Virus record (IMG/VR): IMGVR_UViG_3300018080_000116
Span: 32,001-96,000 of that record
Reading direction: 5' to 3' (one strand)
Origin: a virus
Length of the DNA: 64,000 nt
This document shows positions 9,676 to 64,000 of this stretch, in pieces. Every line of letters begins with the position of its first letter. The stretch's first letter is position 1. Made by a program: the position numbers and the translations under genes. The notes beneath the pieces are model-generated. The model made no database searches. It worked only from the letters and a program-made list of their open reading frames with translations, and was not told the DNA's origin.

Positions 9676-10344
9676 ATGAGAACAGACGTGTACGGTCAGA
9701 TCAGTGGCGACCACAACACGCAAAGTGTTGGTGGTCGAAGAAACAACACCAGCGTTGACGCTTGGATCAACACCGACAATGCCACCAAGAGTGATTGCGG
9801 CATCCGGGTTAGTGGCCGAGTGTATGGTGAGCGCAGCCTAAACGGTCGTATGCGGAAGACCTGTCACGGTTGTGGTTACAAGTGGGGCGAAGGTCATTGG
9901 GACGAAGGGAACCACGAGTGGGTGCCCCACGAAGACGATGATCGTCGAGAGTGCCCGCAGTGCGGTGCCACTCGTCAAGGCATCGACACTCGCAAGAGTC
10001 AGTTCATCGTGCGGTTGCCCGATCAGACCGATGACAACTGCCATATCGAAATCACAACGCCTCACCATGAGGCGACCAAGATACTACAGTTTGGTGCCGC
10101 CTTGGTTACGGTCCAAGGTGTTATGCAACAGGCCGAGGGTATCGAGAAGAAAGAGCCCGAACTTGTGCAGCGTGGCAAGGTGCGGATCAAGCAGGCCATG
10201 CAGTTGTTGGAAGAACATGAGGCCGAGGGTGACAAAGCGTTGCCCAACGTCACGCTGCCCGGAGGCGTCACACTGGCACACGCCCTGGCTTGTGTCGCCC
10301 TCGTTGAAAGAATCGTCAAGGGCGAAGCCCATTCGGACAGTTGA
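9676..10344 (+). CDS. hypothetical protein with Zn ribbon
   Basis: CHGC..CPQC. Confidence 0.85.
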   Translation: MRTDVYGQISGDHNTQSVGGRRNNTSVDAWINTDNATKSDCGIRVSGRVYGERSLNGRMRKTCHGCGYKWGEGHWDEGNHEWVPHEDDDRRECPQCGATRQGIDTRKSQFIVRLPDQTDDNCHIEITTPHHEATKILQFGAALVTVQGVMQQAEGIEKKEPELVQRGKVRIKQAMQLLEEHEAEGDKALPNVTLPGGVTLAHALACVALVERIVKGEAHSDS

Positions 10345-10538
10345 TGAAAGAGATCGTAGTCAAACTCGATGACGACGTATGGGAAGACCTTCGCCGAGCG
10401 GCAGGTGTTCGCATGAGAATGGGCGTTGCGTCTCCCACGGTTGTCGATGAATTCTCGCTCAAGTTGATCCGGGCGATTGACGAGGGCGAAACGGAAAAAC
10501 ATTTTCAGTATCGAAATCCTAACGAACCGAGGGACTAA
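10341..10538 (+). CDS. small hypothetical protein
   Basis: overlap coupling with previous stop. Confidence 0.75.
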   Translation: MMKEIVVKLDDDVWEDLRRAAGVRMRMGVASPTVVDEFSLKLIRAIDEGETEKHFQYRNPNEPRD

Positions 10539-10544
10539 AGCACC

Positions 10545-10940
10545 ATGACCACTGCAATTGGCACCCAAGGTATTGTTGTGTGTGACGGCGAGAGTGGGAT
10601 GCGCCGCCTTTCCATCACCAACAACAACGGCGGCACGACGTTCTTGCCCGAGGGACGATACCTTGTTGAACTGGTTTACGGTTTCGAGGATGAAGAGACC
10701 GGCACCGTTCGTCACGGTCGCCTCCTGCGAGAGGAAGACATCCAGGTCGCTCGCAAGGTTGGCACCTGTGAGTACGATAGCGAGTATTGGCGCAAGCGTG
10801 TCGAAGGGCCGGATGCGAAACCACACGACCGTGACCACCTTCGACGTGTGCTCGAAGCCGAAAAGAACTTTGACCCGAGCTACGTTTACTTCCATGTTTG
10901 GTCCAGCAATCCAAATTGGTTCCCCGGCGAAACGGAGTGA
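10545..10940 (+). CDS. hypothetical protein
   Basis: 131-aa ORF in operon. Confidence 0.8.
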   Translation: MTTAIGTQGIVVCDGESGMRRLSITNNNGGTTFLPEGRYLVELVYGFEDEETGTVRHGRLLREEDIQVARKVGTCEYDSEYWRKRVEGPDAKPHDRDHLRRVLEAEKNFDPSYVYFHVWSSNPNWFPGETE

Positions 10941-42919: not shown

Positions 42920-43951
42920 ATGGCCAGGAAAAAGAAGAAGAGAGATGGGCGAGAGATCAGGGCAGAGATTCAGAAGGAGATGACCGAGCGAATTGTGCAG
43001 GCCATCAAGGACGGCAAGCCGCCCTGGCGCAAGCCCTGGAGCAGCAGCCCGAACGCTGGTTGGCCGAAGAACATTGCCAGCAAGAAGCCGTACCGTGGCA
43101 TGAACCCCTTGCTGTTGACCTGTACGTGCATGGACTACGGCTACGATAGCTGTTGGTGGGGCACGTACAAGCAGTGGGGCGACCTGGGATGTCAGGTCAA
43201 GAAGCGGCCCGACGATGTGGAGTATTGGGGCACGAGGATCGTCTACTGGAGCCCGGTGCAGAGCACCCGCCCCAAGGACAAGGACGACCCGGACGGCGAG
43301 CGTGAGAAGTTCACGTGGTTCATGCTCAAGACCTACACGGTGTTCAACCTGGAGCAGGTTGACGACCCGGACGGCAAGCTTGAGAAGTTCGTCATCGACA
43401 AGGAGAAGCCCCAGATCGCCCCCGAGGCCATCGAAGACCCGGTGTTCGATATGGCTCGTGAGGTGATCGCTGCCACCGGTGCCAAGATCAGCCATGGTGG
43501 CGACCGAGCTTTCTACCGATTGCCCCAGCCCTACGAGGACTGGCCGAACCACAAGAGTGGTGACACGATCCGGCTGCCCAAGCCCGAGACCTTCGTGGCA
43601 CCTCAAGATTACTACTACACGGCCTTCCACGAGCTAGGGCACTGGAGCGAGGTGCGTCTGGGCCAGAAGGATGAGAAGTACGCCTTCAACGAACTGGTTG
43701 CTGAAATGGCGTCCTGCTTCATGGCCTCAGCATGTCAGATTCCGCAGTCCGATGTGATGGACAATCACGAGCGCTACATGGCCTCGTGGTTGGGCCGGAT
43801 GGGCGACGACCCGTCCTTCATCTTCAAGGCCAGCACGCTCGCAGCAAAGACCACTGAGCACCTGCTGAGCTACAGCGGCCACGAGGATGTGATCGGCGGT
43901 CAGCATGGCACTAAGGAGCTTGAGGGCGAGGAGCAGGCAGCCGCCGCTTAA
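42920..43951 (+). CDS. ardC: ArdC-like ssDNA-binding/antirestriction protein (DUF1738 plus zincin-like domain)
   Basis: PPWRKPW...P.N..SKKPYRGMN.L.L, WGTYKQW..LG.QVKK, YTVFNLEQ, FHELGHWS, YAFNELVAEMAS. Confidence 0.9.
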   Translation: MARKKKKRDGREIRAEIQKEMTERIVQAIKDGKPPWRKPWSSSPNAGWPKNIASKKPYRGMNPLLLTCTCMDYGYDSCWWGTYKQWGDLGCQVKKRPDDVEYWGTRIVYWSPVQSTRPKDKDDPDGEREKFTWFMLKTYTVFNLEQVDDPDGKLEKFVIDKEKPQIAPEAIEDPVFDMAREVIAATGAKISHGGDRAFYRLPQPYEDWPNHKSGDTIRLPKPETFVAPQDYYYTAFHELGHWSEVRLGQKDEKYAFNELVAEMASCFMASACQIPQSDVMDNHERYMASWLGRMGDDPSFIFKASTLAAKTTEHLLSYSGHEDVIGGQHGTKELEGEEQAAAA

Positions 43952-57369: not shown

Positions 57370-57688
57370 CTCGTTGTCTCCTTGCCATTTGGGCCAGCAA
57401 CTTGCCTATGATCGGAAGTTCTTCTTCCAGCTTATCGAGCTTCTTGTCATTCTCGGCCTGCCGTTCATCCATCTTCTCTTTCCATTGTTGGTCAATGAAG
57501 TGGGTGGCCTTGGCCAAGCAGGCTTGATATTCCTTCTGCGTGATGATCCCCTTGGACATCAAAGCAATGACAAGAGCATAGTGGTTGATTAGGTGGATCT
57601 GATTCGTGCCGATGAGCACTTCATTGTAATTCGGACCCTGGATCAGTTGACGAAGTGTGTCCTTCGTTTCGTCACTCATAGCTCCCAT
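57347..57688 (-). CDS. hypothetical protein
   Basis: in operon. Confidence 0.75.
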   Translation of the reverse strand: MGAMSDETKDTLRQLIQGPNYNEVLIGTNQIHLINHYALVIALMSKGIITQKEYQACLAKATHFIDQQWKEKMDERQAENDKKLDKLEEELPIIGKLLAQMARRQRDADGEGA

Positions 57689-58188
57689 GTGTCTAATACC
57701 TCATTATCTTTTTCAGCCGCTTTTTCAAAAAGCTTCTTCATCCGTTCTTTGGCCGGTTCCCAACCCTTGCGCTTATGGAATGTCTCAACTAAGGTGGAAA
57801 ACACATGCATGTTGGGGTGAAAGCGACCTTCCCAAAAGCGAGAGGGGTTTTCTTCGTTCAAGCAGTTTTCGATAGCCGCTGCCGTCGCCGCCGATCTTGA
57901 GATCCCCGCTTGACAATGAACCATTATAGTGCCAATGTCATCTCTTTCCCAGAACGATTCTACGAAGTCCCAGATCTTGTGTGCATCATCTTCTGAAAAA
58001 AGACTGCCATGAGCAGGAGACATGGGAGCATCAATATCGCCAAAAGAGCACTGTAGCAGGCCAAGACGCTTAACGCCACTAATTTTTGGATGTTCATCGA
58101 AACTGTCTATGCTAATACAGACCCAGGGTTCGTCACACTCGAATTCCTTCGCTTTGCTCTTAGAGAGTACCACCAAGTTCTTTTTCAT
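57676..58188 (-). CDS. PTP/dual-specificity-like phosphatase
   Basis: MVHCQAGISRSAA (HCX5R); upstream F.DID loop. Confidence 0.85.
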   Translation of the reverse strand: MKKNLVVLSKSKAKEFECDEPWVCISIDSFDEHPKISGVKRLGLLQCSFGDIDAPMSPAHGSLFSEDDAHKIWDFVESFWERDDIGTIMVHCQAGISRSAATAAAIENCLNEENPSRFWEGRFHPNMHVFSTLVETFHKRKGWEPAKERMKKLFEKAAEKDNEVLDTWEL

Positions 58189-59114: not shown

Positions 59115-59344
59115 CAGATGTATTCCTCGATGATCTTGAGAACAGCCTTGATGTCGTCACCAGCCAGATCCAGTGTGGTTTCGCCTATCAAGAACTGAGC
59201 TTCGTCGGGGAAATATTCTTCCCCGTCATCGGTTTGCAGGGGGCCGTAGTTGTCTCGGAACACCTTGTCAGCATGTTGAAGCTTCTCTTGGATTATCCTG
59301 ACAATAACAGGCGGCATGAATTTAGGCACGACGACCCCTTTCAT
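59114..59344 (-). CDS. small hypothetical protein
   Basis: coupled to next gene. Confidence 0.7.
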   Translation of the reverse strand: MKGVVVPKFMPPVIVRIIQEKLQHADKVFRDNYGPLQTDDGEEYFPDEAQFLIGETTLDLAGDDIKAVLKIIEEYI

Positions 59345-60176
59345 TCACGTTCACGGGTGGCATCAATTCCAGGCGGAACGTCTTCGTGTTGAGATACATG
59401 GGCACTTCTGGATGTGCGCCTTTCCAGCGATTCTTCAATACGCAGCATCGAAACACATGGGTATTCCAAGAAACGGGAGTGTGGTCATAACGCATTTGGA
59501 GAACAACCGAAGGCATGTAGGCCAGCGGGCGATAATCCACAGCCGCCACCCCGAACTCATCATTCAATTTTTGTGTTGTAATCGAAAGAACAATGGCACA
59601 ATCGTGATCGTATGCCATGCCAACCAGTTGATGCAGCGTGTCCATCCTGCGTTTGGCTCGATAGTTGTAGGGCGTCTCCCCAGTTTGATACCAATTTCGG
59701 AAAGGAAGGGTTCCGAAGCTCTCGTCGAAAAGGATGTCGTGATTGCCCAACGCCCGATGCCAATTAGACTCGACATCTTGAGGCATGTATGAGGCGGGCA
59801 GCAGAGAGTAATCACCAAAATAATCAGTGGGGTAATACCACAAGTGCCCCTCAAAAGGGAGCGTGTTGGCACCCCTGTGAGCCAACAGGTGGGCCGTGCC
59901 CTGTTCAGGCACAAATCCCGCAGAACTTTTCTTGGCGGCATTGAGTGCCATGGTTCGCATGAGAGCCGATTTGCCAGAACCGGCTTTGCCCATGACAACT
60001 GAGACGGTTCCTCGGCGAAGACCGCCTCCTAACGCCTCGTCGAGCATTGGAAATCCGGTTGTAATAAGCTGTTCATCCAGCTTGACGATCTTCTTTTTCT
60101 TTTCCGCCACCAGAAGCGTCGGTGCCGCCACAAACGTCCCGATCACTCCCAACATCTGCCGTCTGTTTAGATTCAT
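59322..60176 (-). CDS. DnaB/RecA-like P-loop ATPase with twin-arginine-like N-terminus
   Basis: NRRQML plus hydrophobic run; ITTGFPMLDEALGGGLRRG; Walker A GKAGSGKS; VLKNR. Confidence 0.8.
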   Translation of the reverse strand: MNLNRRQMLGVIGTFVAAPTLLVAEKKKKIVKLDEQLITTGFPMLDEALGGGLRRGTVSVVMGKAGSGKSALMRTMALNAAKKSSAGFVPEQGTAHLLAHRGANTLPFEGHLWYYPTDYFGDYSLLPASYMPQDVESNWHRALGNHDILFDESFGTLPFRNWYQTGETPYNYRAKRRMDTLHQLVGMAYDHDCAIVLSITTQKLNDEFGVAAVDYRPLAYMPSVVLQMRYDHTPVSWNTHVFRCCVLKNRWKGAHPEVPMYLNTKTFRLELMPPVNVNERGRRA

Positions 60177-60781
60177 TGCAAGTTCTCCCAGTGTGCTTCC
60201 ATGCGAAAGCTGCCCTTCTCGCACATGAAGTCCATGCGGTCAATGTAGGATCGAGGATGACCGCTCGCCCAATACCAATACGACGGGTAATCAACATGCG
60301 CCCACACATCGGCATCGGGAGAGCCATGAAGCGGACTGCCCTCCCATATGGCAAAGCCCCTCTGGCCCGACAGCCACAGGGTAGCATCTGGATTTTCTCG
60401 CAGATGATAGAAATTCCCCTTCCCCTCTTTCCACGCAGGCTTAAAGGCCATCATGTGGGAGATTGTGAAAGGGTGGGCCATGACCCACTTCACCGGGCCT
60501 TTTTCTTTCCAAATGATCTCGCACAAATGCCAGTAAAACCCTTCAATGCGTTCGTTCACCAACAGATGTTCGGACTTGACATTGCCGTAGTGTAAATGCT
60601 TGGGCGCATCATGCAGCATGTCGAACGTCCGCACATCATGCTGGGGAATATGTCCCGGTTCGGGTTCCAGGATCTTTACTTCGTGTCTTCCTGGCTTGAG
60701 GGGAAGAAAAGCAGAAGCAGGCAAGACCACTGCGGCTCCCGCCGCAGTGGTCATTTTCAAAAAGTCCCTTCGATTATGCAT
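60173..60781 (-). CDS. protein with twin-arginine (Tat)-like signal
   Basis: NRRDFLK-MTTAAGAAVVLPASA. Confidence 0.75.
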   Translation of the reverse strand: MHNRRDFLKMTTAAGAAVVLPASAFLPLKPGRHEVKILEPEPGHIPQHDVRTFDMLHDAPKHLHYGNVKSEHLLVNERIEGFYWHLCEIIWKEKGPVKWVMAHPFTISHMMAFKPAWKEGKGNFYHLRENPDATLWLSGQRGFAIWEGSPLHGSPDADVWAHVDYPSYWYWASGHPRSYIDRMDFMCEKGSFRMEAHWENLQ

Positions 60782-61283
60782 GGGGTCTCCTTTTTTGCTG
60801 TGCGGTCATAATGCAGACGTTGTTTTCCATGGCGACCCTTCTCCACATTTCCATTTCGGAGGGGAGTTCTCTCAAGTCAGAGAAAGACAGGGACTTCACG
60901 ACATCTCGCTTGGTCATGGGTTGACCAGCGATCAAAAGTCTGGCTTCGGGCCATGTGGCTTTTGCCACAGCAACCTTTGATACCAGATTGCGGGGCCCGT
61001 AGATGAACCAGACCTTCATGGGGTAGCTCATGTTCTCGTCGGCTTCGATGGAATCTTCTACCGCTCTCATAAAATCCCATTCCCGTTCTCGGTCTCTGAA
61101 GATCATTGGAACCCGAACGAGATCGGTTCCATCACCTTTGGCATCGATTTGACAATCATTGCTTTGTGTGGAAACGTAGTAGATTTCGCTCGCCTGTTTC
61201 ACTGGCGTGGCGAAAGAGAGGGGCAAGACCACTGCGGCTCCCGCCGCAGTGGTCGTTTTCAAAAAGTTTCTTCGGTTAATCAT
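60774..61283 (-). CDS. protein with twin-arginine (Tat)-like signal
   Basis: NRRNFLK-TTTAAGAAVVLPLSFA; C-terminal RRVAMENNVCIMTAQQ. Confidence 0.75.
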   Translation of the reverse strand: MINRRNFLKTTTAAGAAVVLPLSFATPVKQASEIYYVSTQSNDCQIDAKGDGTDLVRVPMIFRDREREWDFMRAVEDSIEADENMSYPMKVWFIYGPRNLVSKVAVAKATWPEARLLIAGQPMTKRDVVKSLSFSDLRELPSEMEMWRRVAMENNVCIMTAQQKRRPHA

Positions 61284-61452
61284 TGTTTCCTCCAAACGAA
61301 TCCGGTTCGTTCACATCGAATGCCCGCCCGAGTCCACACGATTCTATCGCAGTTCTCAAAGGATCGCACGGTGTTTCTTTTAGATGGTGCGTCCTTGTGA
61401 GCCACATGAGGGTCGTATGCCCTCTGAACAGGCGGCGCTTGTCGTGGAGCAT

Positions 61453-61665
61453 TCATTTTCGAGGGTCCGGTAGAAGGTACATGGGCCACAAGATCGCCAG
61501 CCCGGCACATATCGCTGCTTTGCCCCAGTTGATACCGATGCCGGGCTCCCACCAGCGTCCGAATTTATGATCGGGCTGGGCAAACATCAAGATAAAGCTC
61601 GTGGTCCATCCAATCAAGTAGACTGTGAAGAGGGTAGAGATGATCCATCCGATGATTGCAATCAT
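61453..61665 (-). CDS. small membrane protein
   Basis: two TM runs ending LWP. Confidence 0.75.
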   Translation of the reverse strand: MIAIIGWIISTLFTVYLIGWTTSFILMFAQPDHKFGRWWEPGIGINWGKAAICAGLAILWPMYLLPDPRK

Positions 61666-62219: not shown

Positions 62220-62423
62220 TTAGTCGTTTGGCCCATGGCTTGCCACACCCCTTGTTTGGCGTTCCTGGATGACTTCCACCATCCGAATCCAATCCCATTG
62301 TAGGTTCGGGCTGCATCGGATCTCGGTGAACTTAATCATGGCTTCCTGATCGGAATCGGCCTCAAACCGTGTGTAGAGTTTTTCTGGGATGTCATGTCGG
62401 GCGTGATAGACTTCGTATTTCAT
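62220..62423 (-). CDS. small hypothetical protein
   Basis: ATGA overlap. Confidence 0.75.
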   Translation of the reverse strand: MKYEVYHARHDIPEKLYTRFEADSDQEAMIKFTEIRCSPNLQWDWIRMVEVIQERQTRGVASHGPND

Positions 62424-62734
62424 GTTTTCTTGTGTCTTGTAATGTCGAGTAGGTACAGGAATAGAACAATAACGCCAAGGATCAAAGCCACTATGATGGC
62501 GGCTGCGAACAAAGTCCCAAGAAGGAGGGCAAAACCACCAATGATAGTCCCATCATTAAACTCCCACGCCAACTCCGGTGTCCCCCACAACCAGTTGAAG
62601 GCGGTTGTGGTGGGGCCGACTATTTGTCTCCAGCAGGAGAGCAGCAGCATGATTGGCTTGCCGAAGATGGCCAAGACAACGCATGTCATTGTCACATAAA
62701 CCAACAGTCGTCCGGTGGTGTATTGCTTCAACAT
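62420..62734 (-). CDS. membrane protein
   Basis: TM-rich. Confidence 0.75.
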   Translation of the reverse strand: MLKQYTTGRLLVYVTMTCVVLAIFGKPIMLLLSCWRQIVGPTTTAFNWLWGTPELAWEFNDGTIIGGFALLLGTLFAAAIIVALILGVIVLFLYLLDITRHKKT

Positions 62735-63772: not shown

Positions 63773-64000
63773 TGGTTTTCCTTTCTCCTTGTTAATCGGT
63801 AAGAGCGTTCAATTCTTCCGGCCATTTTGATTTTCCGCTTATCGCAATATCGGCCAGATCACCCAGGAGATCCCATTGGACGTTGAAGGTGTCACCTTCT
63901 CGGAGGTACGTGTCCAGTTCTCGGAAAGATCTCAACACCAGAGACTCTCCATCTGGAAAGGGGCTTTTTTTATAGAACAGTTGGAGGGACAGGCGGGACA

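Follow-up and report, generated by a model that had tools for sequence, protein, structure and literature searches.

The window analysed here, a stretch of 64,000 nucleotides (nt), comprises bases 32001-96000 of the 138,192-base IMG/VR virus record IMGVR_UViG_3300018080_000116, and on its minus strand lie three consecutive genes, termed A, B and C, whose products all begin with a leader resembling the signal peptides of the pathway for twin-arginine translocation (Tat); in C, this leader precedes a RecA-type core (Table 1). The stop codon of A and the ATG of B overlap by 8 nt (60774-60781), the stop codon of B and the ATG of C overlap by 4 nt (ATGA, 60173-60176), and a Shine-Dalgarno site stands before each ATG. 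The overlaps and the Shine-Dalgarno sites indicate that the N-termini given here are the real ones, and the start of C is further confirmed because its homologues begin at the same methionine. Read from the sequence, A-B-C is one translationally coupled unit, and an earlier note on this DNA, in which three coupled genes with these N-termini had been described, was borne out by these features and by the open reading frames (ORFs) themselves.

Table 1. Positions in the window of genes A, B and C and of the features associated with them (aa, amino acids; bp, base pairs)
Feature	Position	Strand	Description
Gene A	60774-61283	-	169 aa; Tat signal peptide (residues 1-25, ending SFA) and orphan mature part of ~144 aa
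Gene B	60173-60781	-	202 aa; Tat signal peptide (residues 1-24, ending ASA) and orphan His/Trp-rich mature part
Gene C	59322-60176	-	284 aa; twin-arginine leader/anchor (residues 1-24), basic cluster EKKKK, RecA-superfamily core (residues 34-280)
Leader-coding region of C	60105-60176	-	N-R-R-Q-M-L, then an 18-residue uncharged stretch including a conserved proline
Leader-coding repeat, A copy	61222-61283	-	62 nt, 90% identical to B copy
Leader-coding repeat, B copy	60720-60781	-	62 nt, 90% identical to A copy
Hairpin in leader codons of A	61227-61254	-	perfect, 12 bp, GC-rich, 4-nt loop; identical copy in B at 60725-60752
Shine-Dalgarno site of A	61289-61293	-	GGAGG, 5 nt from ATG
Shine-Dalgarno site of B	60787-60791	-	AGGAG, 5 nt from ATG
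Shine-Dalgarno site of C	60185-60189	-	GGGAG, 8 nt from ATG
Gene D, 3' part	63792-64000	-	next Tat-leader gene of the cluster; start lies 346 nt past the window end

The leaders of A and B were scored against two curated models of Tat signals, Pfam TAT_signal (PF10518; cut-off 22.7 bits) and TIGR01409 (cut-off 16.7 bits). The A leader reached 31.9 and 26.9 bits, respectively, and the B leader 27.4 and 26.3 bits; all four scores are above the curated cut-offs. Both leaders read N-R-R-N/D-F-L-K, followed by a stretch rich in Ala, Gly, Thr and Val, a proline, and then SFA in A or ASA in B. Tat signals have been reviewed as possessing an almost invariant arginine pair, a hydrophobic residue at +2, a less hydrophobic h-region and a late helix-breaker (PMC7317946). 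Inspection shows in A, B and C an arginine pair, hydrophobic residues at +2/+3, a late helix-breaker and, over ~13-20 residues, an h-region of moderate hydrophobicity. For signal-peptidase cleavage, which calls for small residues at -3 and -1, the candidate positions read SFA in A, ASA in B and LVA in C. Bacterial Tat signal peptides, such as those of E. coli TorA and SufI, resemble the leaders of A and B in several respects: the N-R-R-x-F-L-K motif, an h-region rich in Ala, Gly and Thr, a proline ahead of the c-region, the putative SFA/ASA sites and scores above the curated cut-offs; however, the two leaders are phage-encoded, they head orphan mature proteins, they belong to a group of nine clustered in 10 kb, and their DNA has in part been copied. 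The Tat character that the earlier note had assigned to the three leaders was upheld, for A and B by both models and for C, which itself falls below both, by conservation across its family.

A scan of the whole record found such leaders only at 92-102 kb, in nine genes that are all on the minus strand and have mutually unrelated mature parts; confinement of the leaders to one 10-kb stretch of one strand excludes chance, and a six-frame search placed six of the nine above the Pfam TAT_signal cut-off. The 62-nt direct repeat that encodes the start of the A and B leaders occurs in only these two copies in the whole record. Counted from the codons of the arginine pair, the leader DNA of A and B is identical at 53/60 nt, and either one matches the next two leader genes of the cluster at 36-41/60 nt, whereas the C leader matches any other leader at 22-27/60 nt. 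The mature parts of A and B have no mutual similarity. These identities make the A/B tag look recently copied and the C leader not, and an origin of the C leader as a recent copy of the A/B tag was ruled out (25-27/60 nt identical). The idea of a modular tag shuffled among phage genes therefore holds for A and B, where nearly identical leader DNA heads unrelated mature parts within a cluster of nine likewise tagged genes, but it fails for C, whose leader DNA is unlike that of the other eight and whose leader, judged from its homologues, is an old and invariant part of a whole protein family.

Two further observations concern the leader DNA. A 36-nt near-copy of the A/B leader core (window 60731-60766, 5 mismatches) is present in contigs of two other public sequencing runs, one from sediment and one from seawater, where it adjoins different upstream sequence and again shows the arrangement Shine-Dalgarno-ATG-AAT-AGA-CGA (M-N-R-R); the leader module of A and B may thus recur in other genomes. 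In the contigs from public runs, the assemblies break at both A/B leader repeats. GC-rich mRNA hairpins were also found in the Ala-rich h-region codons of four of the nine leaders, with 12 bp in A and B (Table 1), 14 bp in gene I and a shorter stem in gene H, the last two on the piece of the record designated L002 (L002:13421-13530 and L002:13661-13770). The fold z-scores of the four hairpins range from -2.0 to -3.3, those of the A/B copies being -2.7 and -2.0, and the hairpins may be either a side effect of runs of GCN codons or a genuine feature of the RNA.

ATPases of the RecA/DnaB type are classically cytoplasmic, and the earlier note, which expected such a protein in the cytoplasm, had recognized an intact RecA-fold core in the third gene. 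The motifs are indeed present in C: TGFPxLD, GGG, GKAGSGKS (Walker A), DILFDE (Walker B) and KNR, plus an acidic residue after strand 2. Sequence profiles (KaiC, DnaB_C, Rad51 and PHROG DnaB-like helicases) cover only residues ~34-99, which hold the entry motif and Walker A, and C is below every Pfam cut-off among the matched families; with DnaB_C, it scored 21.4 bits against a gathering cut-off of 27, over profile positions 2-48 of 255 only. The structural check that the note had proposed was run for C with AlphaFold2, and a 40-sequence alignment gave a confident model (predicted local distance difference test, pLDDT, 80.6; predicted template modelling score, pTM, 0.79) with an N-terminal helix at residues 5-22 and a RecA core at residues 34-280, superseding a poor model made with four sequences (pLDDT 51). 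The best Foldseek matches of this model in the PDB were RecA proteins (E ~5e-13), and among viral structures they were DnaB-type helicases and RecA-like recombinases. A VIA search, which is independent of Foldseek, returned a tie at Z 19.6 between the T7 gp4 helicase domain, RecA and DnaB (1cr0_A, 3cmu_A and 6kza_B), with root-mean-square deviations of 3.4-3.8 over 193-219 residues, followed by RadA, KaiC, PH0284 and FlaH at Z 17-19. As modelled, C has the generic core of the RecA superfamily, in which Walker A, Walker B and KNR are intact.

The earlier description of the third gene as a RecA/DnaB-type ATPase was supported, but C is not a DnaB helicase. The DnaB N-terminal domain (PF00772) is absent from C, in which residues 1-33 are leader and linker and the core begins at ~34, and the 138-kb record has no DnaB_C match besides C. 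Because this domain is missing and the DnaB_C match is below its cut-off, C was ruled out as a replicative DnaB helicase. The C-terminal RecA-like domains of superfamily 4 (SF4) helicases (DnaB, T7 gp4 and T4 gp41) and the core-only proteins (the KaiC domain, PH0284, RadB and FlaH/ArlH) have the same fold as C and the same order of motifs, from TGFxxLD through Walker A, the acidic residue after strand 2 and Walker B to the KNRxG arginine finger, at Z 17-19.6. Unlike them, C matches profiles only over the first ~50 residues of its core, lies below all curated cut-offs, lacks the DnaB N-terminal domain, carries an export-type leader, and has relatives of which 13-16/40 have lost the P-loop.

These relatives were collected in several ways. 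BLASTP and a word-indexed search yielded three full-length homologues of C at 42-48% identity, the closest homologues lie on contigs of 34-55 kb, and scans of viral, genome and metagenome collections for close relatives returned generic DnaB Walker-A matches or nothing. A HMMER profile search of 1.84 billion cluster representatives gave 1482 matches, and the top of the list consists mostly of proteins of ~170-320 aa (~250 aa at the very top) that begin with a twin-arginine leader, in many cases RRDFLK or RRNFLK; in the leader-bearing matches, the RecA entry motif TGFPxLD follows ~35 residues after the leader. Among the best 151 of the 1482 matches, 40 bear the leader. At least 40 cluster representatives have one layout, which C shares: within ~170-320 aa, an arginine-pair leader is followed by TGFPxLD around residue 40, then by GGG and, close to the C-terminus, by KNRxG. 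Mean column identity in the 40-sequence alignment is 18%, and the members are 18-52% identical to C. All are unnamed metagenomic proteins and mostly singletons, and a second sediment run contains short pieces identical to C. One member, whose leader ends in a normal AIA site, sits on two IMG/VR huge-phage contigs, of 245 kb (48% complete) and 80 kb (16% complete). Furthermore, a 4.2-kb metagenome contig (L043:1932-4196) encodes three tandem overlapping paralogues, each with an arginine-pair leader and none with a canonical Walker A. C shares its architecture and length class with the rest of the family, in which tandem and P-loop-less copies also exist, but it is one of the members that have kept a complete ATP site, and it is coupled here to two unrelated Tat-signal orphans.

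Two side observations were made on these relatives. The first of the three tandem paralogues has a lipobox-like LIGC after its leader. On the 245-kb contig (region L040:8511-11766), the family member (10001-10693) lies between a gene for an AAA-type ATPase and an opposite-strand gene whose protein shows a hydrophobic N-terminal stretch and a putative HxxE-type motif that recalls zinc carboxypeptidases.

The searches indicate that the family is rare and undescribed. Targeted full-text searches for such a phage Tat/RecA protein returned nothing, although literature coverage is incomplete and this is hence not proof; a 2026 Tat review is silent on Tat cargo encoded by phages, and a 2021 overview comparing jumbo phages uses none of the terms "signal peptide", "secreted" and "periplasm".

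Of all segments of C, the leader is conserved best among the homologues, and across the family it is kept more strictly than the ATP site. The arginine pair is present in 40/40 members, the residue at +2 from the pair is Phe or Ala in 31/40, the residue at +3 is Leu in 35/40 and Lys comes next in 15/40, a pattern that agrees with the R-R-x-F-L-K consensus; a helix-breaking proline of the h-region (Pro19) is found in 37/40. The uncharged stretch has a median length of 17 residues (13 at the shortest) and moderate hydrophobicity, and the flank charges (+2.1 on the N-terminal side, +0.9 on the C-terminal side) favour an N-in orientation. Six of the 40 match Pfam TAT_signal themselves at E <= 0.01. 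The P-loop lysine, in contrast, is present in 27/40 members, as compared with 34-36/40 for KNR, and among the best 151 HMMER matches a Walker A motif is found in 24/40 leader-bearing and 107/111 leaderless proteins (Fisher p = 9.5e-8). Loss of the P-loop at this frequency argues for a domain that would lie outside the cytoplasm or work without ATP. Because the P-loop is lost while the arginine pair and KNR are kept, the conserved job is likelier to be binding or scaffolding than sustained ATP hydrolysis, and the role of the family is probably nucleotide-independent binding or assembly.

In C itself, the leader reads N-R-R-Q-M-L; an uncharged stretch of 18 residues, including a proline, comes next, and E-K-K-K-K after it. 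The close homologues have Glu or Asp at the position that matches -1 of the LVA site of C, which makes cleavage of C improbable. Basic residues in the c-region have been interpreted as Sec avoidance, and uncleaved Tat signal anchors occur in Rieske proteins (PMC7317946). The absence in the C clade of a small residue at the cleavage position, together with the Lys cluster, points to an uncleaved anchor with the N-terminus inside and the C-terminus outside. The N-terminus of the Rieske iron-sulphur protein offers a parallel: C likewise has an arginine-pair motif, a single moderately hydrophobic helix followed by basic residues, a clade that lacks a usable cleavage site, and a folded domain predicted at the outer face of the membrane. 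It differs in its cargo, which is a P-loop domain of the RecA type and not a redox domain bearing a cofactor, and in that its dependence on Tat is putative.

Taken together, we regard it as somewhat likelier than its negation that the host Tat pathway takes A and B into the periplasm and places C at the outer face of the cytoplasmic membrane, the latter by an anchor predicted to stay uncleaved. All three proteins would be made and folded in the cytoplasm, and the twin-arginine leaders would then be recognized by the host Tat translocase. The signals of A and B would be cleaved at SFA and ASA, releasing the mature proteins into the periplasm, whereas the leader of C would remain as an N-in/C-out anchor, as in Rieske proteins, and would keep the folded RecA-like domain at a distance of ~12 residues from the membrane's outer face. 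With its complete site, C could bind nucleotide before export. The earlier proposal that the leader tethers the ATPase is plausible as far as the membrane is concerned, since members of the C clade offer no usable site for cleavage; the frequent P-loop loss in the family, however, argues against a motor in the cytoplasm that docks at the translocon.

Several observations weigh against export of C and bear instead on an alternative that we judge unlikely but serious, in which C is a membrane-anchored ATPase facing the cytoplasm. The arginine pair and hydrophobic N-terminus would here be a mere anchor, inserted by Sec/YidC or spontaneously and possibly with the N-terminus out, and the RecA core would use ATP at the inner face, for example to attach phage DNA or a partner to the membrane, with A and B still exported. 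The motif of C is RRQML and not RRxFLK, and its leader misses the Tat models, with no TAT_signal match at E <= 1 and no Tat model among the 25 NCBIfam matches listed. The ATP site (Walker A, Walker B, the acidic residue after strand 2 and KNR) is complete in C and its three closest homologues, which is difficult to account for where ATP is absent, and to our knowledge the known RecA-superfamily ATPases all act in ATP-containing compartments. The Lys cluster directly follows the hydrophobic stretch, and with the C-terminal flank (+3) at least as basic as the N-terminal flank (+2), the positive-inside rule leaves the topology of C undecided. The 138-kb fragment also has no match to TatA or TatC, although this is uninformative at ~27% of a genome. 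A plain anchor, however, would tolerate Lys for Arg, yet the arginine pair is invariant in the family and is followed by Tat consensus residues; an uncharged stretch of only 13 residues, as in many members, is short for a membrane-spanning helix; the charge bias is N-in family-wide; and P-loop loss is far commoner than in the leaderless relatives.

It is considerably less probable that the leaders act on Tat itself, with nine abundant early proteins docking at TatBC to saturate or block host export or to use the translocon as a dock. The density of leaders is unusually high, since 10 kb holds nine of them and six score above the Pfam cut-off, and some mature parts resemble cytoplasmic proteins (RecA-like in C and, weakly, a head-maturation protease in gene E); but A and B have what look like normal signal-peptidase sites, as real cargo does, the nine mature parts all differ, which blocking would not require, and many core and interface positions are conserved in the RecA-like family, indicating that the mature part is under selection. 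Jamming of host Tat export, as the earlier note had suggested, is a claim that nothing here supports. Least credible of all is that the leader is read by a route other than Tat, such as phage-specific sorting to a compartment or to the virion, and only resembles a Tat signal. Huge phages do sort proteins by routes of their own, but the leaders of A and B satisfy curated bacterial Tat models down to the h-region and AxA-type sites, and no compartment or sorting genes were identified in the fragment. For both Tat blocking and non-Tat sorting, no positive evidence was obtained.

With Tat-dependent delivery of A, B and C to the envelope as the preferred reading, the role of the trio there is a guess: host-envelope takeover or the exclusion of competing phages. 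A bolder version, which we hold to be improbable, is that huge phages export a folded RecA-type ring or filament protein through host Tat, bearing nucleotide picked up in the cytoplasm if the site is intact, along with further offshoots of cytoplasmic phage machines (for example, a dead prohead-protease paralogue), and that the RecA-type protein handles DNA in the periplasm or blocks the entry of competing phages. If true, a replication-protein fold would have given rise to a periplasmic machine for nucleic acid or the envelope, a kind of phage effector undescribed so far. The usual cargo of Tat consists of the cell's own cofactor-bearing enzymes; if export of C is true, C would be a new kind of Tat substrate, a group of uncultured giant phages would depend on host tat genes, and the question would arise of what a RecA-like domain does where ATP is absent. 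The stricter conservation of the export signal, compared with the ATP site, suggests re-use of replication and assembly folds by huge phages as envelope or periplasmic proteins, and the family likewise suggests a dependence of huge phages on host Tat.

Neither A nor B had a homologue in a k-mer/HMMER search or in searches of IMG/VR, GenBank phages, two related huge-phage records, PDB sequences, PHROGs and PADLOC. In A, the earlier note had seen a DnaB-like remnant, and this is weakly supported by a single hhalign match (probability 77-80%) between the C-terminal 27-29 residues of A (139/141-167) and the helix-strand "H3" region of the RecA-like family (176/178-204 of C); the mature part of A alone scored 21.1, against a maximum of 18.7 in 150 shuffles; hhalign found nothing when A was compared with a smaller alignment. 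Because of this H3-like match and the tandem paralogues known on another contig, A could be an eroded relative of the RecA-like family. B has no similarity to that family by hhalign; its mature part contains 15 His and 10 Trp in 178 aa and may bind metal or sugar. The ESM Atlas structures predicted for A and B were unreliable (pLDDT 0.36 and 0.27, respectively), and structure neighbours were not used.

Besides A, B and C, the cluster comprises six further Tat-leader genes on the same strand (L002:7793-13750, record 95.8-101.7 kb), of which gene D reaches into the window. A cluster protein of 76 aa has a lipobox-like PLGC after its leader, and gene E (L002:9655-10224) has a weak PHROG match to the head-maturation protease family (E = 2.5e-4); Peptidase_S77 has no match in the 138-kb fragment, which is uninformative for a record of this completeness. 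Between the Tat-leader genes lie small minus-strand ORFs that are almost wholly hydrophobic (61453-61665, 70 aa; 62420-62734, 104 aa), which suggests a membrane- or envelope-directed gene module. We infer that A-B-C is part of such a module, made up of nine Tat-leader genes and several tiny membrane-protein genes in ~10 kb of one strand. Scans of the sequence for sigma-70 promoters and terminators found no more sites than in shuffled sequence, and no RNA run is listed as carrying the locus among public sequencing runs.

The assignment of the source to a fragment of a very large uncultured (huge) phage rests on the IMG/VR record and the few PHROG matches. CheckV completeness of the record is 27%, which for 138,192 bases implies a genome of roughly half a megabase. 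Neither a capsid nor a terminase gene was seen in the 138-kb fragment, and PHROGs gave no match for the majority of the window's long ORFs. Among the very few annotatable genes is one on the plus strand (window 42920-43951) with a strong PHROG match to an anti-restriction protein family (E = 1.5e-61). On the minus strand, window 57676-58188 encodes a 170-aa protein with the CX5R phosphatase loop HCQAGISRS and sub-threshold Pfam matches to dual-specificity and tyrosine phosphatases.

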